This document shows, one piece after another, positions 5,910 through 42,324 of a DNA stretch of 64,000 nucleotides. A program made the translations under genes and the position numbers. Source of the DNA: Alphaproteobacteria bacterium (GTDB lineage: Bacteria > Pseudomonadota > Alphaproteobacteria > Rs-D84); NCBI GenBank assembly GCA_017427405.1, contig JAFRSV010000014.1:9490-73489 (forward strand). Reading direction: 5' to 3'. The stretch's first letter is position 1, and each line of letters starts with the position of its first letter. The notes under the pieces are model-generated. The model saw only the letters and a list, made by a program, of their open reading frames with translations. It did no database searches and was not told the DNA's origin.

Positions 5910-6245
5910 TCATTCCGATAACGCACGATACAGCGCATCAGGCGTTTGTATAAACGGTGCGCGCATTTTAATTGCATCCTTGGCCATATTGACACAGGTC
6001 CAATTTTTTCGCGGGAAATTTCGTGGTAAATCACATGGCACATAAACAAAGCACCAACCATATTGCCGCAACATTTTCATATCACGTGCGCCCAGGCTAA
6101 TTTTTTCGACACGTCCATGCGATACAAATTGATAGAGTATAAATCCAGCGCGCCCACGCACGATAACCGCACAGTGCCGAAATTTTTTACAAAATATATT
6201 TGGTAAAATTTTTGAAGACTTTTGTGCAAACCCAATAATAACCAT
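5910..6245 (-). CDS. Hypothetical protein, 111 aa (possible small permuted papain/NlpC-P60-like hydrolase; weak)
   Basis: ATG preceded by AAGGA at about 8 nt. Follows the 114-aa gene by 17 nt. His-then-Cys arrangement (FRHCAVIV ... WTCVNMAKDAI). No family recognised with certainty. Confidence 0.5.
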   Translation of the reverse strand: MVIIGFAQKSSKILPNIFCKKFRHCAVIVRGRAGFILYQFVSHGRVEKISLGARDMKMLRQYGWCFVYVPCDLPRNFPRKNWTCVNMAKDAIKMRAPFIQTPDALYRALSE

Positions 6246-6262: not shown

Positions 6263-6607
6263 TTATTCAACCCAACCTTTGGCACGCGCGGCCGCATCAA
6301 TAACGCGCATCGCCGAATCCCATACGGCGGCGGCATGATTTTCGCGCCAAATATATTGATGTGGGGCGCGCCGGCGATCGCCGAATTCTTTGATGACCGC
6401 TAATTGTTCGTCATTTAATTTCCCCGACAAATAAAGTTTTGTAATCATTGTTTCAACATCAACCAATTCGCACACGCGTCGTGTTGCCGCGTTCCCACGA
6501 TATTGCCCAATATCATTACGCACAGATTTCGAATACAGAAACCAAAACCATATTTGTTCTGCACTTTGAAATTTTTCCGGTGTTATATTAACTTGTGAAT
6601 TATTCAT
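6263..6607 (-). CDS. Hypothetical protein, 114 aa
   Basis: Internal ATG (MNNSQVNIT) with a strong AAGGAGAAATTATA-ATG RBS, so the track ORF is trimmed from 6694 to 6607. No recognisable motif. Confidence 0.55.
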   Translation of the reverse strand: MNNSQVNITPEKFQSAEQIWFWFLYSKSVRNDIGQYRGNAATRRVCELVDVETMITKLYLSGKLNDEQLAVIKEFGDRRRAPHQYIWRENHAAAVWDSAMRVIDAAARAKGWVE

Positions 6608-6844
6608 TATAATTTCTCCTTTTTTTCTAATTCCTTTTAATATATAAAGACCCGATTGAGTTCGGTAAATAACTACAACCATAAATTGAAACAAAGTGTG
6701 AATTAGCGATTCGTTCAGTGGTTATAAATTTTTATCTGCGAATCGATAAACTCTTGGTTTTTTGATAAAAGGCGATGCATACGCATCGCCTCTCTCGCTT
6801 ATGGCATAATGAATTTTTTTGCTATGTCATGTTAAAATCCTTTG

Positions 6845-6890: not shown

Positions 6891-9317
6891 CTAAAACACA
6901 ATCGGTGGGAAACAATCACCACCCGTATTCGGACAACAATTAAACCCTTGGTCACCCATATCGGTATATGTTTCACCCGGACAGCATCCATTTGCATCCG
7001 GATTAGCACCACCATCACATGTGATAACAGATGTATTTTGTTGCGCCGGCGCGGCGGGCGTTTCTTTCTTGAACGGATTCTTTATAGTGCCATCCGCATT
7101 ATATTCAAGTCCAAGAACCTGGGTATTATATTCAACGGTATTCGCACCTGTGGTATAATCTGTTTTCTGCACACCCATTTGTTGCTGATTTTGGAACACC
7201 GCTTCTTGCCGTGCATTATTGATTGCGGTATATGTCCCAAATGAACGGCAATAGAAATCAATGGTGGCAAAACTATACTGATTACACAATGGCTGACCAG
7301 CTTTCCCAGGGTCCATTTTAGGCGTGCAAGACATATTATCGGCACAATCGCAACAATCTTTCTGAATAGAAGATTGCATCAACGAACGAACCTGGCCAAT
7401 AAGTTCTTCCATATCTGTACTTGGGGTTATTTGATTTGCGGCTGTTCTCCAATTCGCGCGGTTCTCGCCACCTGTACCATCCGCTGCCTTGGTTTGGTAT
7501 GGTCTTATTGCACACGCCTTACCCGGTTGATCGCCACACGTCACGAATAAATCAACCGGCGAAAATACGGTAATACGTGTCCCCGCGGCAATTGAAAAAG
7601 GCGGTGTTGTATTGTTCATAACATCGACCAACAATTTTGTCGCAACATTATTCCACGCGGTGATAATTTCATTTTTGGCAAGTTCCGACGAACGCACAGT
7701 TCCACTTTGAACAACGGTATTATTATCCAAATCAATCTGATTCACAAATGCATCGGACACCGGTGCAATCAAATTCACCGCCGCCGGCACAATAGCGGTC
7801 AGCATTGGCATAATAAATTGTTGCAAATAATCCGTACTGCCGTGTCCGGGGACACCCTTGCGTCCTTGGGAATCCGCCGAAAACGGACGTTGGTTATCTT
7901 TTGTAAAATTAAACTCAACCCCATCGGGACGAATAAATTGATACCATTCTATTTGCATACGACCAACGGCCTTGTATGGTCCCGGTAATTCACCCGTCAC
8001 ATACCCCAGCATCAATGTCCCCGTTGGAATAATCACTGTGCGACCGTTATCGGAATAAACATTCCTATCCACCGTTGCGCGCACCGGAAGACCATTTTTT
8101 AACATCTCTGCATCCGCTTGAACATCCGAAACAATTGTCGCCGGAATTGGTTTATATTGACGCAACACAAATGTCCTATCATACGGCATAGATGAAAATA
8201 CACCGTCACTTGCACCAGACCCAAGATACGTTTCTTCTTTGACCTTGTTCGGTGTCAACTCCAGTTTTTTCATTCCGCCCGTACCACTTGATTGCCGCTG
8301 TGCAACCAAGGCGTTCAGTTCCGCATCCGTCAATTGCCGTGCCCGATTCCCGCGATTCTTTACCGACCGCACGCCCAATGCGGGTAATTGGTCCGTAATG
8401 GTCAAACGAATATGTTCCGCATCCGACCCAATACGCCGCGCCGGATTATTTATATCCATAATATAACCCGTATCCGGATTATAAATTCCGGTCGGCGTTT
8501 TACAATTCACATCGGAAAACGGGTGATAGTAATACGCACCCCCGTCGGGCCTTATCCAACCCGCATGCACGCCAGATATATTGTATCCTGGAAAAGAAAA
8601 TTCCGAACAACCCGTCCCCGTCATAGAACCGGTGGGTGCCATGGCAACCGTTGGATCCGGCCAATCATATGTCGGCATTTGCGTATTATTAAAATCAAAT
8701 TCCGGCGAAATATCGTCCACATCTTTTTCAAAGTCATACGTTGGTTCCGGTTCAAAAATCGGGTCCGGTTCATATATTGGTTCGGGTTCCGGCGCAGGTT
8801 GTATCTTTAACGGTTCACGCGCACCAATAACAATAGTAATTGCGTTTGGTTCGTCACGTTCCACGCCCGTGGCAAAGTCCGTCCATTTAATTGCAACATC
8901 AACATTGGTAATGGTAATCGGATGTTCAGGTTCGTATTTCAACCGTATCTTGCACGGCATATCCGCATCGATAATAGTATTTTCATTTGTGCATGTTTCG
9001 GTTGCCGAAATCCCCGCGGCATCGGTCGTATCACCATCAACCACAACATTTACATCCGTCACCTGAACACGGGTATTTGCCGACACAGTATATTCAATTT
9101 CGCGCGATTCCCCAACATCCGTATCGACCCAGTCAATCGGTTCGTTTGGCGACACAATCAGTTCCGGCGTGACCGCCACCGGTGAATCAACGATTTCAAC
9201 CTTTTTTGTATCCTTGCCCCGCGTCAGCATCACGAACAACGCAACCACAACAATGATTGCCACAATAAGCAAGAACCATTGCAATCCACGTGACGAAGAA
9301 TCATTTTCCATACTCAT
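6891..9317 (-). CDS. virB10: VirB10/TrbI-family type IV secretion core protein, expanded (808 aa)
   Basis: N-terminal TM (WFLLIVAIIVVVALFVML) and a Pro-rich stretch (PAPEPEPIYEPDPIFEPEPTY). TrbI domain at about aa 380-594 (VRATVDRNVYSDNGRTVIIPTGTLMLGYV...RMQIEWYQFIRPDGVEF...AGTRITVFSPVDLFV). ATG at 9317 has AAGGGGAA upstream; the track start at 9323 is TTG. Confidence 0.85.
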   Translation of the reverse strand: MSMENDSSSRGLQWFLLIVAIIVVVALFVMLTRGKDTKKVEIVDSPVAVTPELIVSPNEPIDWVDTDVGESREIEYTVSANTRVQVTDVNVVVDGDTTDAAGISATETCTNENTIIDADMPCKIRLKYEPEHPITITNVDVAIKWTDFATGVERDEPNAITIVIGAREPLKIQPAPEPEPIYEPDPIFEPEPTYDFEKDVDDISPEFDFNNTQMPTYDWPDPTVAMAPTGSMTGTGCSEFSFPGYNISGVHAGWIRPDGGAYYYHPFSDVNCKTPTGIYNPDTGYIMDINNPARRIGSDAEHIRLTITDQLPALGVRSVKNRGNRARQLTDAELNALVAQRQSSGTGGMKKLELTPNKVKEETYLGSGASDGVFSSMPYDRTFVLRQYKPIPATIVSDVQADAEMLKNGLPVRATVDRNVYSDNGRTVIIPTGTLMLGYVTGELPGPYKAVGRMQIEWYQFIRPDGVEFNFTKDNQRPFSADSQGRKGVPGHGSTDYLQQFIMPMLTAIVPAAVNLIAPVSDAFVNQIDLDNNTVVQSGTVRSSELAKNEIITAWNNVATKLLVDVMNNTTPPFSIAAGTRITVFSPVDLFVTCGDQPGKACAIRPYQTKAADGTGGENRANWRTAANQITPSTDMEELIGQVRSLMQSSIQKDCCDCADNMSCTPKMDPGKAGQPLCNQYSFATIDFYCRSFGTYTAINNARQEAVFQNQQQMGVQKTDYTTGANTVEYNTQVLGLEYNADGTIKNPFKKETPAAPAQQNTSVITCDGGANPDANGCCPGETYTDMGDQGFNCCPNTGGDCFPPIVF

Positions 9318-9339
9318 TACCAATTCCCCTTAAAATACA

Positions 9340-11923: not shown

Positions 11924-14900
11924 ATGAAGTTTTTAACGTCGAGAGTAGTTGTTTTTGCGTTGATGTCGTTTTTGGTGTCGTTTGTGGCGCATGCCGAAGA
12001 CAAGGTTGTTGGTGATGGTGGCAAGACGGGCGATACGGGGGAAGTCGTGAAATCGGGTTCGACGCCGGCAATAGATTACAAGGTTGTCACATCCAAGGCA
12101 TATGTTGATGATGAAATCTCTAAGCTTGCCGCACACAAGGTTAATGGTGTTGCGATATCAAATGAAAACATCCAATTTTATGCAGTAGAAACTGCCAGAA
12201 ACAGTGGGGCTTCTGCAACAAAAACAGTTCAACTTAGTGGCGGGGACATGGATTCTGATGCTACAACCATACCGACGGGAATGATGCTTGTTATTAAGCC
12301 GGCTGAGACATCAACTGTTGTGCCAACAACGTTAAAGCTGAAAAGGACTAGTTCCGATACTACGGGAATATCTAAATCGTTACGTTACAACGGTGCGGCA
12401 ATTACAACCGATATGGCGGGCAAAGTGTGGAATGCGAACACCCCATCTATTTGGGTGTATGATGGAACGTATTGGGATTTTGCCGGTGGTGGCACGGTTG
12501 CGGACGGCCTGATTGATGGCCTTGCGTCACATACCGTAAATGGCGCGCCACTATCGAATTTGGCGAGTGTGTTTTTTGGACCCGGGGAGGGTTCTGATGG
12601 CGCCGACAAAAAGGTAACGATCGATTCTATTGCTTCAACGGAGGGGGGGGTGCCACCGACGGGATTAATAATTGTGACTCAACCAACCGACTCGGATAGT
12701 CATGGTAATTTTGCTCTTACTTTAAACCGTTTTAACAAAGCACCTGTGTTTTATAACGGCGCGCCTGTCAACGACAGAGATGCATCCGCAATATGGAGTA
12801 TTAAAAAGCCGTCTTCGTTTGTGTTTGATGGCACAAATTGGGTGTTTTTAGGAACTGTTGATACTGATACCAACACCGAGTATAGCACCATGTCTGTTGA
12901 CGAAGGAACCGCTGGGCAATCGCAAACGCAACGAGTATTGACGGCACAAAACCTTAAACCGATAATCCAGGGCACAACATTGACAGGTCTTAGTACAAGT
13001 ACTGCTAGTGTAATAACTACATCCGACACGGTAACAACTGGTATGGGTAAGTTACAGGCTCAAATTACGGCTAATGATGTTAGGACACATACGGTAAACG
13101 GTGCACCGTTATCAAATACAGCAAGTTATTTTTATGGCACAGGTGTCGGTGTTCCCGATAATGCTGCCAAAACAGTAGAGATAGACTCTATTTATTCCGT
13201 AATCGGTCAAACAACACCGAATGGACAAATGATTGTTGTTCAACCAGAGAAAACGGCAACGAAAGGTAATATCACATTACAGTTAAACAAGTTCAATGCT
13301 GCGCCAGTGTATTATAACGGAGACGTCTTGAATGATGACGATGTGTCAAAAGTCTGGAATAAGGGGTATCCATCGACATTTGTGTTTGATGGAACGAATT
13401 GGGTTTTTATGGGTAACGGACAATTCGATACTGATACCAATACCGAGTATAGCACCATGTCTGTTAACGAAGGAACCGCTGGGCAATCGCAAACGCAACG
13501 AACATTGACGGCACAAAACCTTAAACCGATAATCCAGGGCACAACATTGACTGGTGTTGACACAACGGCGACAACGGCGGTAACGGCATCGGATACGGTC
13601 ACAACCGGCATCGGAAAACTTCAAGGACAGATAAATGATTTATCGTCACATAAAATAAACGGTATGCCGCTTTCGGGCTTTACATCGAATGGCGATGCGA
13701 TGACCAGTATGTATTTTTATGGGACATCGGATGCGGCGGCGGCCGACGAAGTAAGGAATGTGACCATTGGCGGCATAACCGAACTTGCACCGGGGTTGAT
13801 GATTATTGTGAAACCAACGATAACCGCCGCGTACGGAAATGCGGATGCGGCGGCGGCGGCCAAATTGAACCTGAACGGTCTTGGTGCCAAGGGTATGCGG
13901 TATAATGGTGCCGCACTTACCACCACCAATGATGGATATGCGTGGAAGGCGAATACCCCGGGTTTATGGTTGTATGATGGGACATATTGGAATTTTGCCG
14001 GTTATGACGCAAATAACACATATAACGCTATGACCGATGGTGCCAGTGGTTCGTATAGTGGCCCGGCTGGGACAGCCACCACAAACACGGTGGTCAGTCC
14101 AAAGGTTTTAAAGAACACCGTTCTTGACGGTATAACCCTTACCGCGAATACCGGTCGGACGGCATTTGATAGCACAATCGCGAACACCCCAATTACCGCA
14201 AGTGATAAGGTAATAGAGGCATTTGGTCATGCCCAAGGACAAATTAATAACAAACAGAACAAGATTGATGCAACATGGATAGAAGTTTCGACATTAGATA
14301 ATAGTGACATATGGCAACTGCGTGGGATTGCCGCATCAAATAACGCCGCGACTGATATTAACGCCACCGAAATTGGTCTTATGACAAATAATGATGTATA
14401 TGCGATATTGTCATATAATAACGAGGGGCACGGTTTGGTTGATGCAAATTATGATTTTTTCCAGAGTATCGGTCAAACCGGTCGCTATGAAGAATTGGAA
14501 AATCTTGTTCCAACTGTTGCCGCGGTTGGTGAAGCGTTTGGTGAACTTCGTGCTTTTTCGTGGGATTCCACAAAACACCCCGTGGCGATTGACGCATACA
14601 GCACGACGTTCAGTAACAGTGCAACGAACGCATGGCCGGTGATGAACGAAACCAAGGCCCCAAGTGGCAGTGTCCTTGCCAACGCATTGGCATTAAAGCA
14701 AAATAAAATTGCCGCCGGCACTGCGGGTAATGTTGTGACATATAGCGGTACCGCGGGGCAATTTGGTACACCGCTTAGTATAATGGATGGTCTTAGTTCC
14801 TATGGCGAAGTTGCGGTACTTGATAATGCATATAATTTTGGGGATCCAGAAACATCACAAACCACTGTTTGGCCATTGGCAGAGGCAACCCAATTAATAA

Positions 14901-17900
14901 ATGGTCGCGCCTTTGCTGACGGTTTATCTTTGAAGCAAACTGTGTTACCGGTTACCAGCAATGGAATGGGCAACGGACCAAACTATGTTTACAATGCAAC
15001 GACAAACCCGACAGCGGACGGATCCGTTGTCACCACAACAACGACCGCCGGCACCGTGGGTCAGCGCGGTATTGCGACGGCACCAACGTATGATGCAAAT
15101 GATAATTTAACCAATGGTTCGTGGTTACCGACGATGAGTGCGGTTGAAAGCATGGTATCTGGGTCCGATGTTTCATCGCACAAGGTCAATGGCGCACCAT
15201 TATCAAATACGGCATCGTACTTTTATGGCGAAGGTGTTGGTGCGGCGGACACGGCAACCAAGACGGTTAGCATACCGTCAATAACCGGCACGCCCGCGGT
15301 TGGCCAGGTTATTGTTGTCAAACCGGCAACAACGAATACATCGTCAACAATAAATATAAATTTAAACAATACGGCGGCATACAGTGTTTTGTATAGGGGC
15401 AGTTCTAGCAATATCCCAAAGGATGTTTGGACGGCATATGTTCCATCGATATTTGTTCTTGATGAAACCAGTGGTGGAACAAAATATTGGCGGTATGTCG
15501 GAACTTCGCCGTCGTCGATGGCATGGGGGGCGACCGAAACCAATGCAACAAACGCATATAGTACGACATTTGACGGCACAACAAACAATTGGCCGGTGGC
15601 GGATGAAAATAAATACGTCAAGGGTGATTCATTTGCCCAAGGTTTGGCATTAAAACAAAATAGAATCACAACTAATTTGGTGTCGTTTAATGATACGCCA
15701 AATGGTGCAACATATAATGTTCCGGCACTTGTATCATATGGAACGGGTACAAATAATGCTGATGGGATACTTGGCAACAAAATCGGTATAGTGGGTTATG
15801 GAAATATTGGCGAAGATCTTGCAGATTATGAAGAAGTTGGAATGGATAATTATGTTCCGACCGTTTACGCCGTGGCAGCGGCTTTATCCGCCATTTGGGA
15901 GGGTATGCCATCACAATGGCAGGCGCTTTCTTGGAATGTGAACGGTGACAATGGTGCCAATCGCACAAATGCAATCAATGCATATAATACAACATTTGGA
16001 ACCGGCACAAACAATTGGGCGGGAACCAACACAAATTTGATAAATGGGCAATTTTTGGCAAATTCCCTTGCGCTGAAACAAAATAAAATCCCGGCGGGAA
16101 CAACCCCCGAAAATTTATACACGAACGGCAGTGTATTAACATATACCAATTCTGATGGGGTCGTTGGTGAAAAACATATTATAAATGGTCAAATGTTTGA
16201 GGATCTTGTTGGAGGTCGTGAAAACTGGACGAATGATTATCAAAATATGCTTGTAAATGCCGGTGATATCGGAACAATGTTGAAAAGGCTTGATTGGTCC
16301 AGTACCCAAAGCGCCGCAATCAATGCATATAACACAACATTTGGAACCGGTACAAATAATTGGACGGGAAATGACGGTAATTTAATAAACGGTCAATTTT
16401 TGGCAAATTCCCTTGCCCTGAAACAAAATAAAATTCCTGCCGGCACTGCGGGGGAAATCTTGACGTATAGTGGCACCGCGGGACAGCTTGGAACGCCATG
16501 GGCGGTTTTGTCTAGTTTGACTGGTGAGGATGGAGATGCAATAGAAAACTATAGCACAACGTTTAATGGCACAGATGGCAATTGGACAACAGGTTCCGCG
16601 GGTAAATTGATTACTACGAATGTCTTGGCGGATGGGTTAGCATTGAAACAAACAAGAATCTCAACCGGATTGGTGGAGTTTGAAGGAAATGAAGGTAATT
16701 ATCAATTGCCCGCAATCGTTAGAACGGATGCCTTGGGGGACTTATTAGATGGAACAAGTCTTGGTATATTTAATTTTGCAACATATCAGGCAGAAGATGC
16801 GTATCAAGCTTTAGCCGGGTATGCCGAAGGTGCTACCGCAGCCCAACTTGATAATTTCGTACCTACACTTCGTGTGGTGGCAGAAGAACTTAAAGCGATT
16901 GAAAGTAAACAAAACAAACTCCCAGCTGCATATGCAAGTACAACAGATCCCAGTAAAATGGCATCAATGGGTGGGGAAACGATTGCTTTGGGATCGTACG
17001 CGGGGAGCGTGAGTCAGCGTTATATCACCGCGGGTGGGTCACAACCACTTACCCAAAAAACTGGGGCAGATAATGTGATGTTATATATCAATGGAACAAA
17101 AACATTAGCCCAATTCCAAACATCGAACTTTGGTGCGACCGGCGGGACAGCAACCACCATTCAGGGGAGAATCAAAGAATCGTTGGTTAATTTGGAAACA
17201 TTGAAAGATGTGTATAGTGAATTACAAGAAAGTATTGAAAGTTCCGATGTTTCATCGCACAAGGTCAATGGCGCACCATTATCAAATACGGCATCATACT
17301 TTTACGGCGAAGGTGTTGGGGAGGCGGACACGTCAACCAAAACGGTCAGCATCCCATCAATAACCGGCACCCCCGCCGTTGGCCAGGTTATTATTGTCAA
17401 ACCGGCGACAACGAATACCGCATCAACGATAAAGATAAATTTAAACAATACGGCGGCATACAGTGTTTTATACAGGGGCAGCACAACCAATATCCCATCA
17501 GAGGCATGGACGGCATATGTTCCGTCGATATTTGTCCTTGATGAAACCAGTGGTGGAACAAAATATTGGCGGTATGTCGGAACTTCGCCGTCGTCGATGG
17601 CATGGGGGGCGACCGAAACCAATGCAACAAACGCATATAGTACGACATTTGACGGCACAACAAACAATTGGCCAACGGCGGATGAAAATAAATACGTCAA
17701 GGCTGATTCACTTGCGTATGGTTTGGCGTTAAAACAAAACGCTTTGCCGGCCCAGGCATCGGGTGCCCCGGTCACAATTCCGACATACCCGGCATATGGT
17801 ACATCTGATGGGGTGATTGGTAAAATGTATCTTGATACATCATCGCTTTATACGGCAAATGATGAACATTTCCCATCATCAAAATTGATTCGTACAACAC

Positions 17901-19279
17901 TTTCATCGTATGTGCCAAAGTCGTATGTACTTAATACCAATGATACAAATTCTTATTTGGCCGATGATAACAGCGCGCCATCATGGGCAACAACAAACGG
18001 CGTGGCAAGTTTATATCGTGTTCCGGGCGCGGCAAGTGGTTCAAATTGGGCCGCCACGGCCATGTCAAAGTGGGCCAATGATGAAAATGTTCCAACAATG
18101 GATACTTTGGCAAATTCACTTGCGGGACTTTATGATGCGGTTGGTGTTTCGGTTGAAGATCGAATTCTGAACTACGATGAAACCGGTTATAGTATTGTGG
18201 GTGAAAGTGTTCCCGTTCCGTCCCAGATTGAATATACCGGTGAATTAAAACTTAAAGATGGTAATCAATTGTTCTGGCTGCCACAATTGCAAAATGCGGG
18301 TGTGGAAGAAGCAACGAGATTACTGAAATCTTATTCGATGGACAAAATCGTCCCCAGTATGGATGAATTGGCATTTGCGTTGGATGGTGTTTTACAAACA
18401 CATGAAACCACCAGAGAATGGCAAGAAGTCGTGAATTTTTACAGGGTTCCATCAAGCTCTCTCTTTGAAGTTGCAAAGGAAATAGAGGCCTCTGAAGTTA
18501 ATGCAGTAGCGCTTTACAAAAGTGGTTATTTGCAAACCTTTGCCCCAAGTTTAGAGGCATTGATGAACGAATCCGCCGAGCTTGTACGACTTATAAACAG
18601 CAAACAAAACAAATTATCCGGTACCAGTGGCAACCTTATCACGTATGGCGCAACCGCGGGCACAACCGGGTCCAAGGAAATTGCAACCACCATAACAAAC
18701 AATGCCAACACGGTGCCAAATACACAGGCAGTTTACAATGCCGTAAATGCACGACAAAATGTAATACCGGTCGCTGGTAAATATCGTTCGTCAAACACGG
18801 CAACAAGTGACACACCCATATCTGATTGGACCGTCACAGATATCAAGGGGACCGCACTGGTGACCAAACCAACATCTTCGGATGGTGTTGTTGGCGAACG
18901 CAAGATTTTCGAGGCGGGTGACACATACACAGACGATACTAAAACAAATATACAAATTGCAACAATTGGTGCGGTTATGGAAAACACGTTTACAAAAACA
19001 TGTGTTGAATACGCCCCTGGGTCAACACAAAATGACACCACATGTTGGCTGTGGCAACTTACAAGCAACACCGTCACGTCAACGAGATGTAGCGCGAGTG
19101 GTGTAAGTTGCCGTTCAAGTACCGAATGTTGCAGTGGAATCTGTAGATCAGAGGTTTGTGCCGCCACACTTATCGCTTGCGGGGGCGAAGGATCATCATG
19201 TTCACTGATTGCTTGCTGCGATGGGTTGACCTGTGACAGCAGTAGCAATACATGTGTTAGAGAGGCTGGCCGTACATGA
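11924..19279 (+). CDS. Giant secreted repeat protein (2451 aa), tail-fibre-like modules, Cys-rich C-terminal cap
   Basis: Uninterrupted 7.36-kb ORF with RBS GGAAGGGA and signal peptide MKFLTSRVVVFALMSFLVSFVAHA/ED. Recurrent SHK/TVNGAPLSN, VPT-x3-V-x3-L and LALKQNK motifs. All Cys that I could see fall in the last ~95 aa. Confidence 0.85.
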   Translation: MKFLTSRVVVFALMSFLVSFVAHAEDKVVGDGGKTGDTGEVVKSGSTPAIDYKVVTSKAYVDDEISKLAAHKVNGVAISNENIQFYAVETARNSGASATKTVQLSGGDMDSDATTIPTGMMLVIKPAETSTVVPTTLKLKRTSSDTTGISKSLRYNGAAITTDMAGKVWNANTPSIWVYDGTYWDFAGGGTVADGLIDGLASHTVNGAPLSNLASVFFGPGEGSDGADKKVTIDSIASTEGGVPPTGLIIVTQPTDSDSHGNFALTLNRFNKAPVFYNGAPVNDRDASAIWSIKKPSSFVFDGTNWVFLGTVDTDTNTEYSTMSVDEGTAGQSQTQRVLTAQNLKPIIQGTTLTGLSTSTASVITTSDTVTTGMGKLQAQITANDVRTHTVNGAPLSNTASYFYGTGVGVPDNAAKTVEIDSIYSVIGQTTPNGQMIVVQPEKTATKGNITLQLNKFNAAPVYYNGDVLNDDDVSKVWNKGYPSTFVFDGTNWVFMGNGQFDTDTNTEYSTMSVNEGTAGQSQTQRTLTAQNLKPIIQGTTLTGVDTTATTAVTASDTVTTGIGKLQGQINDLSSHKINGMPLSGFTSNGDAMTSMYFYGTSDAAAADEVRNVTIGGITELAPGLMIIVKPTITAAYGNADAAAAAKLNLNGLGAKGMRYNGAALTTTNDGYAWKANTPGLWLYDGTYWNFAGYDANNTYNAMTDGASGSYSGPAGTATTNTVVSPKVLKNTVLDGITLTANTGRTAFDSTIANTPITASDKVIEAFGHAQGQINNKQNKIDATWIEVSTLDNSDIWQLRGIAASNNAATDINATEIGLMTNNDVYAILSYNNEGHGLVDANYDFFQSIGQTGRYEELENLVPTVAAVGEAFGELRAFSWDSTKHPVAIDAYSTTFSNSATNAWPVMNETKAPSGSVLANALALKQNKIAAGTAGNVVTYSGTAGQFGTPLSIMDGLSSYGEVAVLDNAYNFGDPETSQTTVWPLAEATQLINGRAFADGLSLKQTVLPVTSNGMGNGPNYVYNATTNPTADGSVVTTTTTAGTVGQRGIATAPTYDANDNLTNGSWLPTMSAVESMVSGSDVSSHKVNGAPLSNTASYFYGEGVGAADTATKTVSIPSITGTPAVGQVIVVKPATTNTSSTININLNNTAAYSVLYRGSSSNIPKDVWTAYVPSIFVLDETSGGTKYWRYVGTSPSSMAWGATETNATNAYSTTFDGTTNNWPVADENKYVKGDSFAQGLALKQNRITTNLVSFNDTPNGATYNVPALVSYGTGTNNADGILGNKIGIVGYGNIGEDLADYEEVGMDNYVPTVYAVAAALSAIWEGMPSQWQALSWNVNGDNGANRTNAINAYNTTFGTGTNNWAGTNTNLINGQFLANSLALKQNKIPAGTTPENLYTNGSVLTYTNSDGVVGEKHIINGQMFEDLVGGRENWTNDYQNMLVNAGDIGTMLKRLDWSSTQSAAINAYNTTFGTGTNNWTGNDGNLINGQFLANSLALKQNKIPAGTAGEILTYSGTAGQLGTPWAVLSSLTGEDGDAIENYSTTFNGTDGNWTTGSAGKLITTNVLADGLALKQTRISTGLVEFEGNEGNYQLPAIVRTDALGDLLDGTSLGIFNFATYQAEDAYQALAGYAEGATAAQLDNFVPTLRVVAEELKAIESKQNKLPAAYASTTDPSKMASMGGETIALGSYAGSVSQRYITAGGSQPLTQKTGADNVMLYINGTKTLAQFQTSNFGATGGTATTIQGRIKESLVNLETLKDVYSELQESIESSDVSSHKVNGAPLSNTASYFYGEGVGEADTSTKTVSIPSITGTPAVGQVIIVKPATTNTASTIKINLNNTAAYSVLYRGSTTNIPSEAWTAYVPSIFVLDETSGGTKYWRYVGTSPSSMAWGATETNATNAYSTTFDGTTNNWPTADENKYVKADSLAYGLALKQNALPAQASGAPVTIPTYPAYGTSDGVIGKMYLDTSSLYTANDEHFPSSKLIRTTLSSYVPKSYVLNTNDTNSYLADDNSAPSWATTNGVASLYRVPGAASGSNWAATAMSKWANDENVPTMDTLANSLAGLYDAVGVSVEDRILNYDETGYSIVGESVPVPSQIEYTGELKLKDGNQLFWLPQLQNAGVEEATRLLKSYSMDKIVPSMDELAFALDGVLQTHETTREWQEVVNFYRVPSSSLFEVAKEIEASEVNAVALYKSGYLQTFAPSLEALMNESAELVRLINSKQNKLSGTSGNLITYGATAGTTGSKEIATTITNNANTVPNTQAVYNAVNARQNVIPVAGKYRSSNTATSDTPISDWTVTDIKGTALVTKPTSSDGVVGERKIFEAGDTYTDDTKTNIQIATIGAVMENTFTKTCVEYAPGSTQNDTTCWLWQLTSNTVTSTRCSASGVSCRSSTECCSGICRSEVCAATLIACGGEGSSCSLIACCDGLTCDSSSNTCVREAGRT

Positions 19280-19296
19280 TTATAATCTTGCACTGT

Positions 19297-19326
19297 GAAA
19301 TTCCGCCTTTTGGCGGAATTTTATTT
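19297..19326 (+). terminator. Intrinsic terminator after the giant gene
   Basis: gaaattccgcc-tttt-ggcggaatttt followed by a T-rich tail, 18 nt after the stop. Confidence 0.7.
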
Positions 19327-19366
19327 GATTTGTTGCGTTTTGGATTTTTATACCCAATTTTTCCAC

Positions 19367-19484: not shown

Positions 19485-19558
19485 AGGGGCATGGTTCAAT
19501 GGTAGAACATCGGTCTCCAAAACCGCGGATGAGGGTTCGATTCCTTCTGCCCCTGCCA
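19485..19558 (+). tRNA. tRNA-Trp (anticodon CCA)
   Basis: Hand-folded cloverleaf. Acceptor AGGGGCA/TGCCCCT, anticodon loop cTCCAaa, T-loop GGTTCGATTCC, CCA end encoded. Canonical position upstream of secE. Confidence 0.9.
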
Positions 19559-35962: not shown

Positions 35963-38900
35963 ATGAAACGACTTGCTATATTTATTGGTGGACTGCTTGT
36001 AATGCCCGCATTTGCTGAGGTTGCACCCGTTTTCATCGACGAAAACGATGCGATTGAATATGCGGACGGCATGTACGATGAAAACGGTTTTTTTGTCGCG
36101 CCCGAGGAAATTGTTGAAACGGAAACCGAAGCGGACACGCAAAAAGTGCAGACGCCGGTAAAAATTTCGCGCGCACCCGTGAACGCAACACCGGTCGCGA
36201 ACCGAACGACCACAACGCGTGCAATGCCCGCATCGGCGGGCGCGACGACGGCGTCGGGTCGCGGGTCGGCAAATGGAAATTCATCGCGTGTTGTTGCGGC
36301 ACGAACAACAACCGCAACGCCACGCGCAACCGCATCGCGTACGGTCGCATCACGTGGAACGACGGCCACATCACCGCGTGCGGGCGCGACATCAACACGA
36401 ACCGCAACATCAACGGCGGCAACCCGCGCGGCGGCGGCAAGGACAACCGGCGGCGCAACACGTGCAACATCGGCGGCCACGGGTGCAACCGTTGCGCGGA
36501 CGGCGACATCTACTGGACGGACGACCGCGGCACGCACCGCGACGGCAACAACCGCGCGTGCGGCAACGGCATCGGGGCGTTTGTCGGTGGATCCAAATCG
36601 TAATGTTGGTACGGCACTAAAAAATGCGACTATTACTGCGGCAAATGGTACGGTCACATTGAATGATTCGGGTGGTACGCTTTACAACAAATCTGCATCA
36701 ATTCGTCGGACGCCAACAATTCGTATGTCATCATTGAACGGAATATCGGCGGAAACGACGGCGGTTTCCACCATGTCATTGGAAGATATGGACGACCTGG
36801 CGGAACTTACGGATTATTGCAAGGCGCAGTATGCAAACTGTATGGATAATTATTGCAATGTCTTGGATGATAACCAGGGCCGGTGCAGTTGCAGTGCGAA
36901 TTTGAAAAATTATGCGCGGGCCGAGGCGGCATTAAAAACCGCGACCGAAGAATTACAAGATGTCGCGCAAAAAATCCAATACATCGGCCTTACCACGCGT
37001 GAGGTTGAAACCCTGTTCACGGAAACGATTGCCGAAGAAACAATGCGCACCAAGGGTACGGACACCAGCCAACTTCAGGCGAGTTTGAACAAGATAAAAG
37101 ATATGATTATCGATGTGAAATCCGGCACCGCCACCAGCAGCGCCAGCAACGATATCCTGGGGTTAAACTTTGACCTTTCGGGGTTGCTTGAATTTTCCTT
37201 TGACAGCACCGGTTTCGACCTGGGCTCGCTCTTTGGCACCACAAACACGAACAGTGTTAGCAATCAACGCGGCGAAGAACTTTATAAAACCGCGGCGGCG
37301 CGTTGCAAATCATCGGTGTTAAAGGCATGCACGGCGCGCGGTGTTGACGCGTCACTTGTCACGAACGCGTACGATTTGGAAATCGACCGCGAATGCATGG
37401 CATATGAACGCAGTTTGAATGATTCTAACGACCAAATGTTGGCGACGGTTCGGAACGCGAAAAACGTTTTGCAAAAGGCGCGCCTTATGGTTGCGCAACA
37501 AAAGAACGCATACGACATGCGCGGTTGTATAAATGCGTTGGATGCCTGTATGCAGGATGAATTTGTCTGTGGTTCGGATTATGAAAATTGCCTTGACCCG
37601 ACGGGCCGTTATATCGTGAACGGTGAAATCGTGGTGGGCAGCCAACCCGGCCATGCCATCGACCCGGAAAGCCAATCGCGTGTGGCAAGTGTGATGACCA
37701 GTGACGTTTGCCGTGTGAACCTCTATCGGACATGGGATATGCCGGGTGAAACATGCCGTGCGCATAGTGGTAGTCCCGCGGCGAATTATGAATCTTATCC
37801 AACTGATTATCAGGGCAACGCCTGGGGCAGTGGCACCGAAGACACATTGTCGAAATACATTGAAAAAACTGTGATCGGTAATTACCCGGCCAAGACCAGT
37901 GAAAATATGTCACTGTATCTGCAAAACAAAATTGGGTATAATCAAAAAGACCGCAATTATGGTATGTGCATGTCGGTCCTTAACAAGTGCCAGGATTACA
38001 CATACACCCGCGGCACTGGCACATCCGCACAATACGAACCCGCGAACCAGGTTGTTCAACAATACCTTGCGCGCGTTTTGGTTCAGATCAAGGCGAAACA
38101 GGATGAAATCTTGGCCAACTATGCCGAAACATGCGTTAGTGACGTCACATCGTGCCTGGGGCAGAACGGTTATCCAACCGAAGATCCATCCGAATGGGAT
38201 TACAGTTCCACATATGGATACAGCACGTATACAACAAAAATGAATATCGCGGTCAACGCGTGCCGTGCACAAATCGTCACATGTATGTCGGTGAACGGAT
38301 ATTCAATCGAGACACCAACACCAACGGAAATGAATTGTTGGGTTCAGGGATTGTTATATAGTACATCCACAGACAAATGTATGCCTAATAACCTTAAACA
38401 AGATTGTGCCGATGGCCAAAAACTATGCAATGGGGAGTGCATAGATGAGAGTGAAATTTGCGAACAGCCGGTTCAGCAATATTATGTATCGTTGGAGTGT
38501 GGAAATGGGTGTAATGGGTCGAAAACCGTAAACGGTACTTTCGACCAAGGTTCGTCTGTCACTGTGCCATCGTGTGGCACAATTCAAAAACCGAATGTGA
38601 CGTGGACTTGTTCGGTTCCGTCCGGTTTAAGCATCAGTGGCGGAGCAACCATAACCGTGACAAACAAGATAACATGTTCCGCAACGTGTGACAGCAATCC
38701 TACGCCACCAACGCCCCAAGAATATGTGGTAAATATAAATTGCGGTTCTAACGGACAGTTTGTTTCAAAAACTGGTACTACCCCAGGTGGTAACGATTGT
38801 TCTTCCACGCAGTGTGGTACAGTAACGTTTACAGACGATTGCATAAATTTAAACGAGTATTGCAGCATAGATGGGGGGGAACAGCAGTATCAATGGAATT

Positions 38901-40300
38901 GTGCTGACTCTATAATTCTTGGGAATAATATTCAAACACAATATTGCCCCGCTGCTGCTTCGACATCGTGCGTCTTAACTTGGAAGGGGGGGCATGGCAG
39001 TTCTAATCCTGAATGGGTGACGGTTAACTTTAATTATGGAACCGCGACCGGCGTGACACCTGCGAATCCATCAAAGTTATATGTTGATGCCACACACCAG
39101 GCCTGCTACGATGCTTATGATACCACCGCAACTGTCGGTGGGGAAAAATGCCCGGCAAATATCGTGTATAACATTACTGTCCCATCTGCAACGGGGGTGG
39201 TATTTGATGGTTTTTATAATGGCAAAACTGAATACATTAATGAAAACGGCGTGATACAAAACGCGTTTTACAACATTGATGGCAATATCACCCTTACCGC
39301 ACATTGGAAATCCCCCGCCGCGGGTGGCATGCGTTATGTGCAAATAGAGGATAATGGTGGTGCGCGCACCAAACAAACCCGTGGAAATTCATGGGAACTT
39401 AAGACCGTATGGATTGACACCGACGGCAGTACGTGCCAGTATCCTGGTGTTTATATTGCCGACCCAAATACCAATATGGTTGTGTGCACTTCACCCGTGG
39501 ACACCATTGGTTGGTGGGTTAAACCCGGCAGTCGCAGTTCCGGTTTTTACATCGATGTCAATGGCGAAAAGGTTTTGTTCGCGCGTGAATGGGGTGAAAT
39601 TGTCACGGAAAACATTAGCAAATTTGCCGCGACCGACCCGGATACGACACTTGTTGCAACACCCACGGTATATGATACCAACGTTGGATATGTTTCGTTT
39701 GATGAAGAAAACAAAACTTGGACGGATACTTATTCAACTTCTCAGGTTGATCAGTACGCCTACCTTCACAACAAGTTTAATATAGATTTCTATCCAAATC
39801 GTCCAACCAGTAGTGGTTCACTACTACCATTAAGTTATACATACATCGAAGGTGACGGATATTATAAACAACCAGTTGGAATGAAAGTTACCGCCGCCCC
39901 AGTATTCGAAGAAAACGAAACAGGCTATACTTTCCGTGGATTTTATCCGGGGCCATTACCCGCGGTATCGAGCAATAGTTCAACCGGAATGGTTTGGCCG
40001 GCCACCACGGGCGGGATGAGTCCGGTGCCGTTATTAAATACAAAATGGGTTCTTGTGACGGATAATCCGGATTTCCAAACTTTGAACCTGTATGCCGCCT
40101 GGGCCAAGAATTGCCCAAGCCCACTTCCCGCCGGGATGAAAAAATGTAATTTGACAATCGGTACGAATGGTTCGGTCACATATGCCGTTGAATGTCAGGA
40201 TGGATATGAAATCCAAGGCGCGGGCGCCGATGCAAAATGCATAATCCCAGGCAGTAATTGGCGTTCCGTGATATTTGATGGTGCAACGGTCGCGTATTAG
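35963..40300 (+). CDS. Large secreted Cys-rich surface protein (1445 aa) with A/T/R low-complexity tract and InlB-B-repeat-like modules
   Basis: Signal peptide MKRLAIFIGGLLVMPAFA/EV. An ~140-aa tract built almost only of A, T, R, S and G (36185-36608). Cys-rich helical region starting CKAQYANCMDNYCNVLDDNQGRCSCS. C-terminal modules of the type GxxFxGFY...LxAxW. Confidence 0.8.
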   Translation: MKRLAIFIGGLLVMPAFAEVAPVFIDENDAIEYADGMYDENGFFVAPEEIVETETEADTQKVQTPVKISRAPVNATPVANRTTTTRAMPASAGATTASGRGSANGNSSRVVAARTTTATPRATASRTVASRGTTATSPRAGATSTRTATSTAATRAAAARTTGGATRATSAATGATVARTATSTGRTTAARTATATTARAATASGRLSVDPNRNVGTALKNATITAANGTVTLNDSGGTLYNKSASIRRTPTIRMSSLNGISAETTAVSTMSLEDMDDLAELTDYCKAQYANCMDNYCNVLDDNQGRCSCSANLKNYARAEAALKTATEELQDVAQKIQYIGLTTREVETLFTETIAEETMRTKGTDTSQLQASLNKIKDMIIDVKSGTATSSASNDILGLNFDLSGLLEFSFDSTGFDLGSLFGTTNTNSVSNQRGEELYKTAAARCKSSVLKACTARGVDASLVTNAYDLEIDRECMAYERSLNDSNDQMLATVRNAKNVLQKARLMVAQQKNAYDMRGCINALDACMQDEFVCGSDYENCLDPTGRYIVNGEIVVGSQPGHAIDPESQSRVASVMTSDVCRVNLYRTWDMPGETCRAHSGSPAANYESYPTDYQGNAWGSGTEDTLSKYIEKTVIGNYPAKTSENMSLYLQNKIGYNQKDRNYGMCMSVLNKCQDYTYTRGTGTSAQYEPANQVVQQYLARVLVQIKAKQDEILANYAETCVSDVTSCLGQNGYPTEDPSEWDYSSTYGYSTYTTKMNIAVNACRAQIVTCMSVNGYSIETPTPTEMNCWVQGLLYSTSTDKCMPNNLKQDCADGQKLCNGECIDESEICEQPVQQYYVSLECGNGCNGSKTVNGTFDQGSSVTVPSCGTIQKPNVTWTCSVPSGLSISGGATITVTNKITCSATCDSNPTPPTPQEYVVNINCGSNGQFVSKTGTTPGGNDCSSTQCGTVTFTDDCINLNEYCSIDGGEQQYQWNCADSIILGNNIQTQYCPAAASTSCVLTWKGGHGSSNPEWVTVNFNYGTATGVTPANPSKLYVDATHQACYDAYDTTATVGGEKCPANIVYNITVPSATGVVFDGFYNGKTEYINENGVIQNAFYNIDGNITLTAHWKSPAAGGMRYVQIEDNGGARTKQTRGNSWELKTVWIDTDGSTCQYPGVYIADPNTNMVVCTSPVDTIGWWVKPGSRSSGFYIDVNGEKVLFAREWGEIVTENISKFAATDPDTTLVATPTVYDTNVGYVSFDEENKTWTDTYSTSQVDQYAYLHNKFNIDFYPNRPTSSGSLLPLSYTYIEGDGYYKQPVGMKVTAAPVFEENETGYTFRGFYPGPLPAVSSNSSTGMVWPATTGGMSPVPLLNTKWVLVTDNPDFQTLNLYAAWAKNCPSPLPAGMKKCNLTIGTNGSVTYAVECQDGYEIQGAGADAKCIIPGSNWRSVIFDGATVAY

Positions 40301-40491: not shown

Positions 40492-42324
40492 ATGAAACGT
40501 TTTTTGACATGTGCGTTGTGTTTTGTATCATTGCCGGCAATCGCCGTCACCCTTTATTACGAACAGGATGGCGCATGCCCGGGATTATACAGCAGCCAAC
40601 CTTTGGGGGGGTGTGGCGCATCCACTGTTGCGAAACTTAACGTGATACCGATAAATGGTACCGTTTTTAATGGTTTCTTTATTAATGGTCAAAAAGTCGT
40701 TAATGCCGACGGGACTTTTACGAACAATGCCTTGGACATACTGCGTGGCGCGGATTTGACATCTGGTGCCGAAATTCCACAAACATATACTTGTTCAAAT
40801 GGTGTAACCGAAACTGGTTATGGTGAATGTCAATCGGGTACCCCTTTGGTCACCGTTAAACTTGATACCCGTGGGGGCAGTATGGCCGCCCCAACACAGG
40901 TAAAGGTTGCGCATGGTGGAACCTTGACCGCATATGCCCCCGACCGCAGCAGTTTCGACGGCGCAATATTTGTTGGTTGGGCTAAATCAGGTCAACCAGA
41001 TTCATCCGCGGCAAAAAACGCGGTGGTTAACGATACAGTTGGTACAACGGTGACATACCGTGCGGTATATTCTTGCCCGGATGGTTATTACATGAATCAA
41101 TACAATGTTTGTGTATCCGATGGTGACGATTATTTTGATCGATATGGGAACGATGTCCCCGCGGGAAATCTGCAATGTTGGCGTCCAACCGGTCCAAACG
41201 GCACCTATCAAAATTATTGTCATTGGAATGTCAAAATCACATTTCACAATAATAACCAAGGTTTTAGTTTAACATCTGGGACACAAAATGACGGTATGGT
41301 GCTGACGTGCTATGGGGGACGTGGATGTGGTAAAAATAGTTTGTGTGCAAGTAACAACTCTAGTGAAACCTGTACGCATCTTTATCAACCAAAAGCGAAT
41401 GATTATTGGTTTAGGGGGTATTTTAGACTTAATGACAAAGAAGTCCAAAATCCAAGCATAGTAATTGTTGAAGAAAACAACGACAGGGCCGCGTACAATA
41501 ATTTTTATCCAAAGACAATGATGGGTAATACAATGAGTATTACAGGACATGCGGTCGTCGCAATGTCTGATAGTATAGTAGAATTGGATTGTCGACCTTT
41601 TGGACCGGGAACAACGGGTAACTGGATTACCAATCCAGACGGTACCACGTATTGTGATGGTATGGTAACAGATACAAATCAGTTCTCTCTCGACGTTTAC
41701 GGTGGGTGGGCGCATAAATGCGCGCAGAGTACTACACAGAACCCATTTTCTTGTCAAGAGGTAATCGGCACCGCCTATTATGCCAGCGAAGGTTTCTTAA
41801 AGGGGTACGTCAAATATAATACATCTTGCGAGGCCGGATACACCATGACCAGCGGTAATAACACATATTATCCACAGTGTACGAAAGAAAGTGGAACACT
41901 TGATATGACATATAACTTTGTCGATCAGTATGGGCTTGCTGTGAATGGGTGCAATGTATCCGGTACAACATGTGAAGTTCATAATACGTATTATCTCCCA
42001 CATCAAGCGGTTTGTGGTTCAAATAATACGTTAAAGTATCTGGATACATATGCAGGTTTATATACACCTAATCATCCCGTCACATGCAGCAGTAATGTGT
42101 TCGGTAACGAACCTCGCGTTGTAACTGGCTATGTATGCAGGTATTCTTGTGAATTGGGTCAAACGGTACCTAATGGAACCTGTGTCCAGGCCTATCGGTC
42201 CGGGGGTACTGTTAATGGCAACGAATATGTTTCGAATATATACGAAGGTTGTAACGCTATAACATGTCGTTCTGGTTACAAAATAACTTTGACGGGTAAT
42301 GGTATAGAATGTATTCAGCAATAG
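40492..42324 (+). CDS. Secreted Cys-rich protein (610 aa) with InlB-B-repeat-like and C-x-x-G-Y modules
   Basis: Signal peptide MKRFLTCALCFVSLPAIAV. 30 Cys by my count. VKLDTRGGSMAAPTQVKVAHGGTLTAYAPDRSSFDGAIFVGWAKSG resembles the Listeria-Bacteroides repeat. Modules CPDGYYMNQYNVC, CEAGYTMTSGNNTYYPQC and terminal CRSGYKITLTGNGIEC. Confidence 0.8.
   Translation: MKRFLTCALCFVSLPAIAVTLYYEQDGACPGLYSSQPLGGCGASTVAKLNVIPINGTVFNGFFINGQKVVNADGTFTNNALDILRGADLTSGAEIPQTYTCSNGVTETGYGECQSGTPLVTVKLDTRGGSMAAPTQVKVAHGGTLTAYAPDRSSFDGAIFVGWAKSGQPDSSAAKNAVVNDTVGTTVTYRAVYSCPDGYYMNQYNVCVSDGDDYFDRYGNDVPAGNLQCWRPTGPNGTYQNYCHWNVKITFHNNNQGFSLTSGTQNDGMVLTCYGGRGCGKNSLCASNNSSETCTHLYQPKANDYWFRGYFRLNDKEVQNPSIVIVEENNDRAAYNNFYPKTMMGNTMSITGHAVVAMSDSIVELDCRPFGPGTTGNWITNPDGTTYCDGMVTDTNQFSLDVYGGWAHKCAQSTTQNPFSCQEVIGTAYYASEGFLKGYVKYNTSCEAGYTMTSGNNTYYPQCTKESGTLDMTYNFVDQYGLAVNGCNVSGTTCEVHNTYYLPHQAVCGSNNTLKYLDTYAGLYTPNHPVTCSSNVFGNEPRVVTGYVCRYSCELGQTVPNGTCVQAYRSGGTVNGNEYVSNIYEGCNAITCRSGYKITLTGNGIECIQQ

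Follow-up and report, generated by a model that had tools for sequence, protein, structure and literature searches.

The literature regards the knottin fold as a toxin and defence scaffold of eukaryotes and viruses, and the locus described here raises the question of why a giant bacterial protein should end in two cysteine frameworks of the knottin type. The protein, referred to below as the giant fibre, is the product of a monocistronic gene (2451 amino acids plus stop codon; positions 11924-19279, taken from the open reading frame (ORF) list and its translation) in a 64-kb stretch of a Gram-negative bacterial chromosome, the whole of which we call the window; the gene and the features inside it lie on the plus strand. 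An identical protein (P0004) is known at NCBI from an alphaproteobacterial metagenome-assembled genome (MAG), where it is annotated as hypothetical. The whole sequence finds no family above threshold in Pfam, NCBIfam or PHROGs, and against PDB sequences the knots alone are matched, weakly. The reading that we favour, with a little better than even confidence and by analogy with phage tail fibres, is that the knots would form the distal tip of a domesticated adhesin of tail-fibre type, a tip that would be variable, locked by disulfides and used in binding.

Knottin-like units at the end of a cysteine-free shaft

The first of the two units, knot 1 (CSASGVSCRSSTECCSGICRSEVC, 19088-19159), follows the framework C-x6-C-x5-CC-x3-C-x4-C (spacing 6-5-0-3-4) and belongs to subtype a of the family described below. 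Six residues of linker in the translation, AATLIA (19160-19177), separate it from knot 2 (CGGEGSSCSLIACCDGLTCDSSSNTC, 19178-19255), which is of subtype c (CCDGLTC) and reads C-x6-C-x4-CC-x4-C-x6-C (spacing 6-4-0-4-6). The preliminary description of this DNA, made from the letters alone, had placed two C-C-CC-C-C motifs at 19088-19255, and its positions, spacings and six-residue spacer are correct to the base. When the six frames of the 64-kb window were scanned with a regular expression for the framework, these two sites and no others were found.

All 14 cysteines of the giant fibre (residues 2360, 2374, 2389, 2396, 2402, 2403, 2407, 2412, 2419, 2426, 2431, 2432, 2437 and 2444) are confined to its last 92 residues, with none in residues 1-2359, so that the earlier impression of some 2350 cysteine-free residues ahead of the tail is borne out. 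Cysteine makes up 1.37% of the remaining ORFs of the window, and the chance of 2359 cysteine-free residues against this background is therefore about (1-0.0137)^2359, or ~7e-15. Among the 35 knot units of the family the six cysteines are invariant (35/35) and the spacing of knot 1, 6-5-0-3-4, is the commonest (13/35); with six cysteines kept throughout 35 units, the pattern must be real and under selection rather than the outcome of chance. The two cysteines that had been noticed just upstream of the knots (in TKTC and TTCW) are indeed present, although their membership in a separate conserved loop module had been missed.

Sequence comparison leads to a single fold class. A unit profile built from ten knot units of the giant fibre and five homologues (alignment A2) and searched against all PDB sequences gave 35 matches at E<=1, 34 of them inhibitor cystine knot (ICK)/knottin peptides and the other Dickkopf-4, and the cysteines of the profile are in register with those of the ICK peptides. 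Xt3a (1.2e-6, in two separate stretches) and cyriotoxin-1a (3.7e-6) are the best matches, and asteropsin G (5.5e-5), hainantoxin-I (8.7e-5) and omega-conotoxin MVIIA (0.011) are found further down. In a phmmer search with the window tail alone, knot 2 finds purotoxin-6 (E 1.4e-3) and asteropsin G (4.6e-3).

The last 131 residues were modelled with AlphaFold2 without templates; the model, with a pLDDT (predicted local distance difference test) of 63-81 on the knots and 74-86 on the hairpin upstream of them, is of moderate confidence and is drawn from a shallow alignment of eight sequences. DSSP assigns to each modelled knot a beta-hairpin that carries cysteines V and VI (strands 86-88 and 91-93 with Cys 87 and 92 in knot 1; strands 115-118 and 123-126 with Cys 117 and 124 in knot 2). 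Foldseek returns 32 PDB matches for this tail model, and 28 are ICK toxins, including the double-knot toxin DkTx, at template-modelling (TM) scores of 0.7-0.8 over the whole target and root-mean-square deviations (rmsd) of 1.3-2.2 A; with so tiny a domain, no E-value is significant (best 0.67). This superposition lends indirect support to the ICK connectivity (I-IV, II-V and III-VI, the III-VI bond threading the ring). The likeness to ICK peptides that had been suggested from the cysteine spacing is thus found again in both the profile search (34/35) and the fold search (28/32).

The hidden Markov model (HMM) searches proposed along with that suggestion give a more mixed result. Sub-threshold knottin-family matches were obtained, but the window tail stays below all curated Pfam gathering cutoffs (bits against cutoff: UPF0506 19.3/23.2, Conotoxin 15.3/25.1, Conotoxin_I2 ~14/27), and CBM18 is not matched. 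When 26 family tails were scanned against Pfam, Conotoxin_I2 was matched by 17, Toxin_12 by 15, Conotoxin by 14 and Dickkopf_N by 13 (best 6.5e-7); many of the tails have weak matches to several knottin families, and clear membership of one family is not seen in any of them. The alternative of a hevein/CBM18-like carbohydrate-binding knot does not stand: the units have six rather than eight cysteines, neither window knot contains an aromatic residue, Chitin_bind_1 matches neither the window tail (E<=10) nor any of the 26 family tails (E<=1), and no hevein occurs among the PDB sequence or Foldseek matches of the tail and the unit profile. The chance that the motif belongs to a known bacterial sorting or anchoring domain, which the preliminary description had named as fatal to the toxin analogy, was also checked and can be rejected; models for the type IX secretion system C-terminal domain, PEP-CTERM and its relatives, LPXTG, the autotransporter beta-barrel and type I secretion system (T1SS)/repeats-in-toxin (RTX) signals match neither the whole protein nor its tail (E<=10), nor any of 35 loop-module proteins (Pfam/NCBIfam).

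Taken together, these profile and model comparisons make it very likely that the units are knottin-like mini-domains in their predicted fold. Homology with the eukaryotic ICK peptides and convergence upon them are both possible.

A modular C-terminus on a tail-fibre-like shaft

To define the family to which the giant fibre belongs, 1.84 billion representatives were searched exhaustively with a HMMER profile, and the 85 proteins found were then parsed; close homologues of the giant fibre itself are few. Members are unannotated proteins of gut Alphaproteobacteria with reduced genomes (order Rs-D84, Candidatus Enterousia), and they share a layout of signal peptide, TVTSKxYVD motif, shaft of 100-2300 residues, GERKIFE motif, disulfide loop (K-x-C-x13-22-C-[WL]-L-W) and variable slot. 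The Sec-type signal peptide of the giant fibre, as read from the sequence, is MKFLTSRVVVFALMSFLVSFVAHA (11924-11995), with a predicted cleavage after AHA, and the N-terminal pattern MK[FV]LTSRVV is kept among homologues. Just past it, a motif scan places TSKAYVD (12089-12109), the local version of the family-wide TSKxYVD motif that is common to giant and small members.

Immediately ahead of the slot lies the loop module (GVVGERKIFE...NIQIATIGAV...C(2360)-x13-C(2374)-WLW, 18884-19054), a predicted disulfide-closed beta-hairpin with strands 36-43 and 54-61 in the tail model (pLDDT 74-86). Its K, Y, PG and CWLW are invariant (alignment A1), it stands at the extreme C-terminus in 65 distinct proteins, and neither Pfam nor NCBIfam holds a model for it or for the family. 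The slot behind it is empty of knots in 39 of these 65 members and contains one knot in 18, two in seven (the window copy included) and three in one. Knot number thus varies across the family and the knots are optional, which had escaped the preliminary description. Three subtypes, a (CCSGxC), b (C-x-NP...DCC-x-GY-x-C) and c (CCDGLTC), occur in the combinations a+c, b+c and a+b, and knot-bearing tails have no unpaired cysteine.

Two further observations concern the same region. P0002, a 160-residue ENA fragment with two knots, has Phe in place of the first loop cysteine (TKTFVEY...CWLW) and hence 13 cysteines; its odd count may reflect either a sequencing error or a natural free-thiol variant. 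Three small members (P0073, P0084 and P0087) carry another cysteine-rich mini-module after a CWLW-type loop, for example ECCSG...CGC...DCSGG..C..G.C, instead of or besides an ICK-like unit, so that several kinds of disulfide-rich domain can fill the slot.

The knots differ sharply from the module that carries them. Two-knot proteins share 69-88% identity in the loop module but 15-44% at the non-cysteine positions of the knots, so that invariant cysteines enclose hypervariable loops. A single pair, the window and L003, could be aligned as DNA, and its synonymous divergence (dS) is near saturation; in this pair the ratio of non-synonymous to synonymous divergence (dN/dS) is 0.16 for the loop module and 0.80 for the non-cysteine knot codons.

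Variation at the locus itself is not confined to the knots. The positional orthologues (L004 5706-8288, L006 4965-8348 and L001 10001-16837) encode 860, 1127 and 2278 residues, compared with 2451 in the window, and have one knot each where the window has two. Flanks are up to 94-96% identical between these relatives, and the first ~48 nt of the gene, within the signal peptide, still align; against L004, where the flanks are 93.9% and 95.5% identical, patches alone align inside the gene, and the fibre locus is accordingly a hypervariable island. Base-level DNA alignment against L004, L005 and L006, whose flanks match at 94-96% over 6-8 kb, outlines a replaceable segment on the plus strand at about 19074-19358, comprising the knots, the short C-terminal tail and the terminator: identity is 60-97% in the loop module, 0-40% across the knots and terminator and 90-100% from ~19360. 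With identity collapsing at ~19074 and recovering at ~19360, the knot segment behaves as a replaceable cassette, and the whole of it has been replaced between genomes whose flanks remain 94-96% identical.

The cysteine-free shaft (12104-17584), parsed by chunked self-BLAST and HMM domain tables, consists of six type-A and seven type-B modules. Type-A modules, of about 120 residues with H-x-V-N-G...DGTxWxFxG, occupy residues 61-189, 193-311, 379-498, 566-694, 1076-1194 and 1769-1887; type-B modules (NAYSTTF...LALKQNK) occupy residues 874-937, 965-1016, 1195-1259, 1337-1397, 1452-1512, 1526-1590 and 1888-1949. In BFVD, 49 proteins resemble a model of an A+B segment (pLDDT 86, from a 41-row alignment) at E<=1e-3; their annotations are tail fibre, hyaluronidase tail fibre or minor tail protein, and the best of them reaches E 3.4e-9 with 32% identity and an rmsd of 2.1 A. 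Foldseek of the same model against the PDB gives nothing significant, the best match being a phage capsid spike (E 0.074).

A profile search recovers proteins of ~230 residues that are 45-48% identical to the type-A module, lack a signal peptide and also share the TTYS-MSV-EGT...LK-II-GT-LTGL segment of the giant fibre. One is encoded in a phage genome with endolysin, ERF and Sipho_Gp157 (L009, 10001-10738) and another in a phage genome with Phage_tail_C and Gp10_C (L011, 10001-10690). These two metagenomic phage proteins, of ~230-245 residues, have one type-A module each and are candidate donors or recipients of shaft modules. A tblastn search of 50,697 GenBank phages with the tail and the shaft module found no match, and a scan of IMG/VR with the tail profile found no confirmed relative.

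The structural neighbours and the sequence relatives together show that the shaft modules share their predicted fold, and an ancestry, with phage tail-fibre proteins, and the fibre nature first supposed from the letters alone is upheld on both counts. Inside the gene, direct repeats (15164-15463/17243-17542, 12860-12998/13427-13565 and 15971-16101/16316-16446) are 86-94% identical and have spacings of 2079, 567, 345 and 1725 nt, each a multiple of three. Such repeats are substrates for the in-frame recombination by which the shaft grows and shrinks, and this explains the variation in shaft length between relatives. The giant fibre is, as far as sequence and models can be read, a cellular, Sec-exported protein built of tail-fibre-type modules and a lineage-specific, cysteine-bearing end.

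A proposed binding tip and its alternatives

The organism provides the setting for a proposal of function. All the fibre relatives found in a scan of GTDB species come from MAGs of the rumen and gut, of which two bear the label Candidatus Enterousia sp., and in L005, a Candidatus Enterousia sp., the flank downstream of the fibre gene is 95.8% identical to the window across 7.9 kb. Candidatus Enterousia belongs to order Rs-D84, with genomes of <1 Mb, no respiration and incomplete glycolysis; these bacteria are uncultured, live in anoxic habitats and have been proposed to be partner-dependent (PMC12306168). The 7.4-kb fibre gene would take up ~1% of a genome of <1 Mb and is hypervariable between near-identical strains, which makes its product a prime candidate for an attachment organelle.

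In the model that we propose, the giant fibre would be a Sec-exported surface fibre of such a reduced-genome gut alphaproteobacterium. By analogy with phage tail fibres its N-terminus would be proximal and its C-terminus distal, and the distal-tip role proposed for the C-terminus in the preliminary description is in keeping with this polarity and with how extremely the knots vary. After Sec export the cysteine-rich end would become oxidised and the knots would fold through their disulfides, giving a compact, protease-resistant and rapidly diversifying tip that may mediate or tune attachment to the surface of a partner cell or host. Two knots on a short linker could also bind bivalently, in the manner of double-knot toxins. 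A wider version of this model, in which Enterousia-type symbionts domesticated tail-fibre modules into Sec-exported attachment fibres whose recombining knottin tip cassette sets partner or host specificity, is tentative and, taken whole, rather doubtful.

Several points weigh against a binding tip. A Sec-exported protein of 2451 residues would still have to cross the outer membrane, and either of its ends may be the anchored one. The tail model is of moderate confidence and shallow alignment, its Foldseek E-values are non-significant, and the tail lies below every curated Pfam cutoff. Because 39 of 65 members have no knot, the knots are accessory, and the dN/dS values come from a single pair near saturation. 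Finally, no gene for a Dsb-type oxidase was seen within the 64-kb window, and the rumen and gut are strongly reducing habitats.

Among the alternatives, the one that survives best is that the knots are an inert cap, which would shield the C-terminus from exoproteases or stabilise an oligomeric fibre end and bind no ligand, their variability reflecting relaxed constraint or immune/antigenic drift. The loops of the window knots would suit such a role, as they consist almost entirely of S/T/G/A/N/D, with few charged residues and no aromatics, and are unlike the binding surfaces of toxins; the absence of knots from 39/65 members and a non-cysteine dN/dS of 0.80, which is compatible with near-neutral drift, point the same way. 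However, the replacement of whole cassettes and the shuffling of subtypes (a+c, b+c, a+b) among close relatives exceed what drift would produce, and the alternative cysteine-rich mini-modules that take up the same slot (P0073, P0084 and P0087) resemble the exchange of receptor-binding tips in phages. An inert cap is therefore unlikely in our estimation, though worth keeping in view.

The orientation of the fibre could also be reversed. Passengers that traverse the outer membrane in an unfolded state, as in autotransporters and two-partner secretion, are typically depleted in cysteine, and the extreme depletion of the shaft, with every cysteine at one end, would agree with a shaft that is threaded unfolded through an outer-membrane pore, N-terminus outward, and retained by a cysteine-rich end that folds in the periplasm as a stopper. 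The fibre gene also divergently adjoins virB8-virB9-virB10 in four genomes; these genomes are syntenic and the whole region is collinear in them, whereas other family members, among them the paralogue P0008, are not adjacent to type IV secretion system (T4SS) genes, and a Pfam scan found no homology of the fibre to known T4SS surface proteins, such as those of the VirB2, VirB5 or CagL type. Moreover, an anchor should be conserved and obligatory, but the knots are optional, hypervariable and swapped as a cassette, and the conserved N-terminal motif together with tail-fibre polarity favours the N-terminus as the proximal end. We consider a periplasmic stopper improbable.

It is more improbable still that cleavage releases the knots from the fibre as free ICK toxins or antimicrobials aimed at a eukaryotic or bacterial target, even though free peptides from venoms and sponges, double-knot toxins included, are their closest relatives of solved structure. 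Ahead of the knots there are variable S/T/N/G/V linkers and no conserved site for processing; the window knots lack the basic or hydrophobic patches typical of channel toxins; a carrier of 2400 residues for a peptide of 60 is implausible; and many small members have a knot directly after the loop module. The toxin-like action once envisaged, in the sense of a released toxin, thus finds no support.

That the cysteines coordinate metal or remain reduced thiols in a strict anaerobe, with convergent spacing behind the ICK resemblance, is barely credible despite the missing Dsb gene in the window, the anoxic habitat (PMC12306168) and the sub-threshold Pfam matches, since there are no CxxC/CxxH pairs typical of metal sites, the profile picks out ICK peptides specifically and aligns their cysteines in register, the template-free model arrives at the ICK fold, and other cysteine-rich exported proteins encoded in the window suggest that oxidative folding is available.

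Genomic setting, significance and comparison with known systems

The fibre gene stands among chromosomal housekeeping genes. Upstream of it are recR, ksgA, a Na+/H+ exchanger gene, lspA and yidC, and then virB10-virB9-virB8 on the minus strand, divergent from the fibre gene; downstream come tRNA-Trp (19485-19558), nusG, rplA, rplJ, rpoB, rpoC, plsX and more housekeeping genes. No phage gene lies near the fibre gene, between virB8 and nusG, and the order virB10-9-8/fibre/tRNA-Trp-nusG is kept in four genomes. An intrinsic terminator on the plus strand (19295-19324; 13-bp stem and T-run) begins 16 nt past the fibre stop codon and, with tRNA-Trp downstream of it, indicates that the stop codon and hence the C-terminus are genuine.

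The neighbouring VirB10/TrbI homologue (6891-9323, minus strand; 810 residues) has a cysteine-rich C-terminal extension ending in ...CDGGANPDANGCCPGETYTDMGDQGFNCCPNTGGDCFPPIVF. Fourteen of its 18 cysteines fall within residues 596-804, with CC pairs at 657-658, 780-781 and 796-797, in a pattern that differs from the ICK framework. Canonical VirB10 C-termini form an outer-membrane cap, and the extension may be surface-exposed. Two ORFs of 111 and 143 residues downstream of virB10 (5910-6245 and 6263-6694, both on the minus strand) have no Pfam match; the corresponding position in L001 also has two genes, of 111 and 114 residues, and neither virB11 nor virD4 follows virB10 in the window cluster.

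Elsewhere in the window, three plus-strand ORFs without a Pfam or PHROGs match are rich in cysteine: one of 1445 residues with 48 cysteines (35963-40300), one of 610 residues with 30 (40492-42324) and one of 429 residues with 22 (62190-63479). As knot carriers they were rejected, the framework search being negative in them. Their composition, taken with the fibre tail, suggests that the organism may rely heavily on disulfide-rich exported proteins. A further ORF of 510 residues (47377-48909, plus strand) matches Pom, the Pfam family of Protochlamydia outer membrane protein, at E 1.5e-11; Pom is a porin-like family from an obligate intracellular symbiont, and the match fits a host-associated lifestyle.

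What was already known comprises the ICK fold class and, as machine annotations only, prokaryotic arrays of knot-like cysteine repeats; a search through the full text of some 8 million papers for bacterial or prokaryotic knottin and for bacterial cystine knot found no use of these terms and no relevant description. Four things appear to be new: an unannotated fibre family with its TSKxYVD head, its shaft of tail-fibre type and its CWLW disulfide loop; the recruitment of tail-fibre modules into a chromosomal protein with a signal peptide; the use of knottin units, from one to three in number, as a C-terminal cassette that can be exchanged; and the occurrence of all this in a reduced-genome, presumably partner-dependent gut lineage. 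If the binding-tip model is right, it would describe a cellular counterpart of the swapping of receptor-binding tips in phages and the first functional use of the inhibitor cystine knot fold to be described in bacteria, with a bearing on whether knottins originated in prokaryotes or were exchanged with them. The family is one more case of structural modules from phages that have been recruited to serve at a cell surface. For finding the partner cells, recombinant knots or loop modules that carry a tag offer a concrete handle, and naturally diversified, fibre-mounted knot pairs are possible scaffolds for engineering.

A comparison with ICK peptides of spiders, cone snails and sponges brings out both the likeness and the novelty. 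The C-C-CC-C-C framework is shared, with a spacing of 6-5-0-3-4 here and 6-6-0-3-4 in MVIIA, as is the pairing of an invariant scaffold with hypervariable loops, and the predicted fold superposes at TM 0.7-0.8. The peptides, however, are free and secreted and have propeptides, whereas the knots are C-terminal domains of a bacterial protein of 2451 residues, and their loops abound in small polar residues and are devoid of aromatics in the two copies of the window. Closest in arrangement are the double-knot toxins (DkTx, or Tau-theraphotoxin-Hs1a, and Xt3a), which likewise have tandem ICK units on a short linker and are both matched by the unit profile; these are venom peptides of ~75-82 residues that act on ion channels, while the knots described here are mounted on a fibre and number 0-3 among relatives.

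Prokaryotic counterparts of the unit are found in the arrays named 'dickkopf-related protein' (Archangium P0077/P0095 and Candidatus Bilamarchaeaceae P0106), which the tail profile recovers, which have the same C-C-CC-C-C unit and which match Toxin_12 (2.3e-11), Dickkopf_N (1.3e-10) and Conotoxin_I2 in Pfam. Such units therefore exist outside eukaryotes. Unlike the fibre, these proteins string together 3-17 units in tandem, frequently after an N-terminus that looks like a twin-arginine signal, and have neither a fibre shaft nor a CWLW loop module. Array carriers unrelated to the fibre include P0026, P0032, P0044, P0048, P0059, P0070, P0072, P0074, P0081, P0082 and P0086 as well as P0077 (Archangium) and P0027/P0106 (Candidatus Bilamarchaeaceae); one Archangium protein has 17 units. 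Many begin with the twin-arginine-like MDxxRFDxxxRxL...SRRxxLK, and the 'dickkopf-related protein' name was given by machine to one cluster.

With phage tail fibres and receptor-binding proteins the giant fibre shares its shaft modules and the combination of a conserved N-terminal part with a C-terminal tip that is exchanged by recombination. It differs from them in that its gene is chromosomal, among housekeeping genes, and encodes a Sec-type signal peptide, and in that the loop module and knots find no match in 50,697 phage genomes or in IMG/VR. Giant adhesins such as RTX adhesins and trimeric autotransporters are similar as very large, repetitive, cysteine-poor extracellular fibres with a specialised terminal module. 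Whereas those proteins are recognised by RTX repeats, a T1SS signal, a YadA-type anchor or a beta-barrel, none of which was detected in the fibre, the fibre has instead an N-terminal Sec signal and modules of the tail-fibre type.

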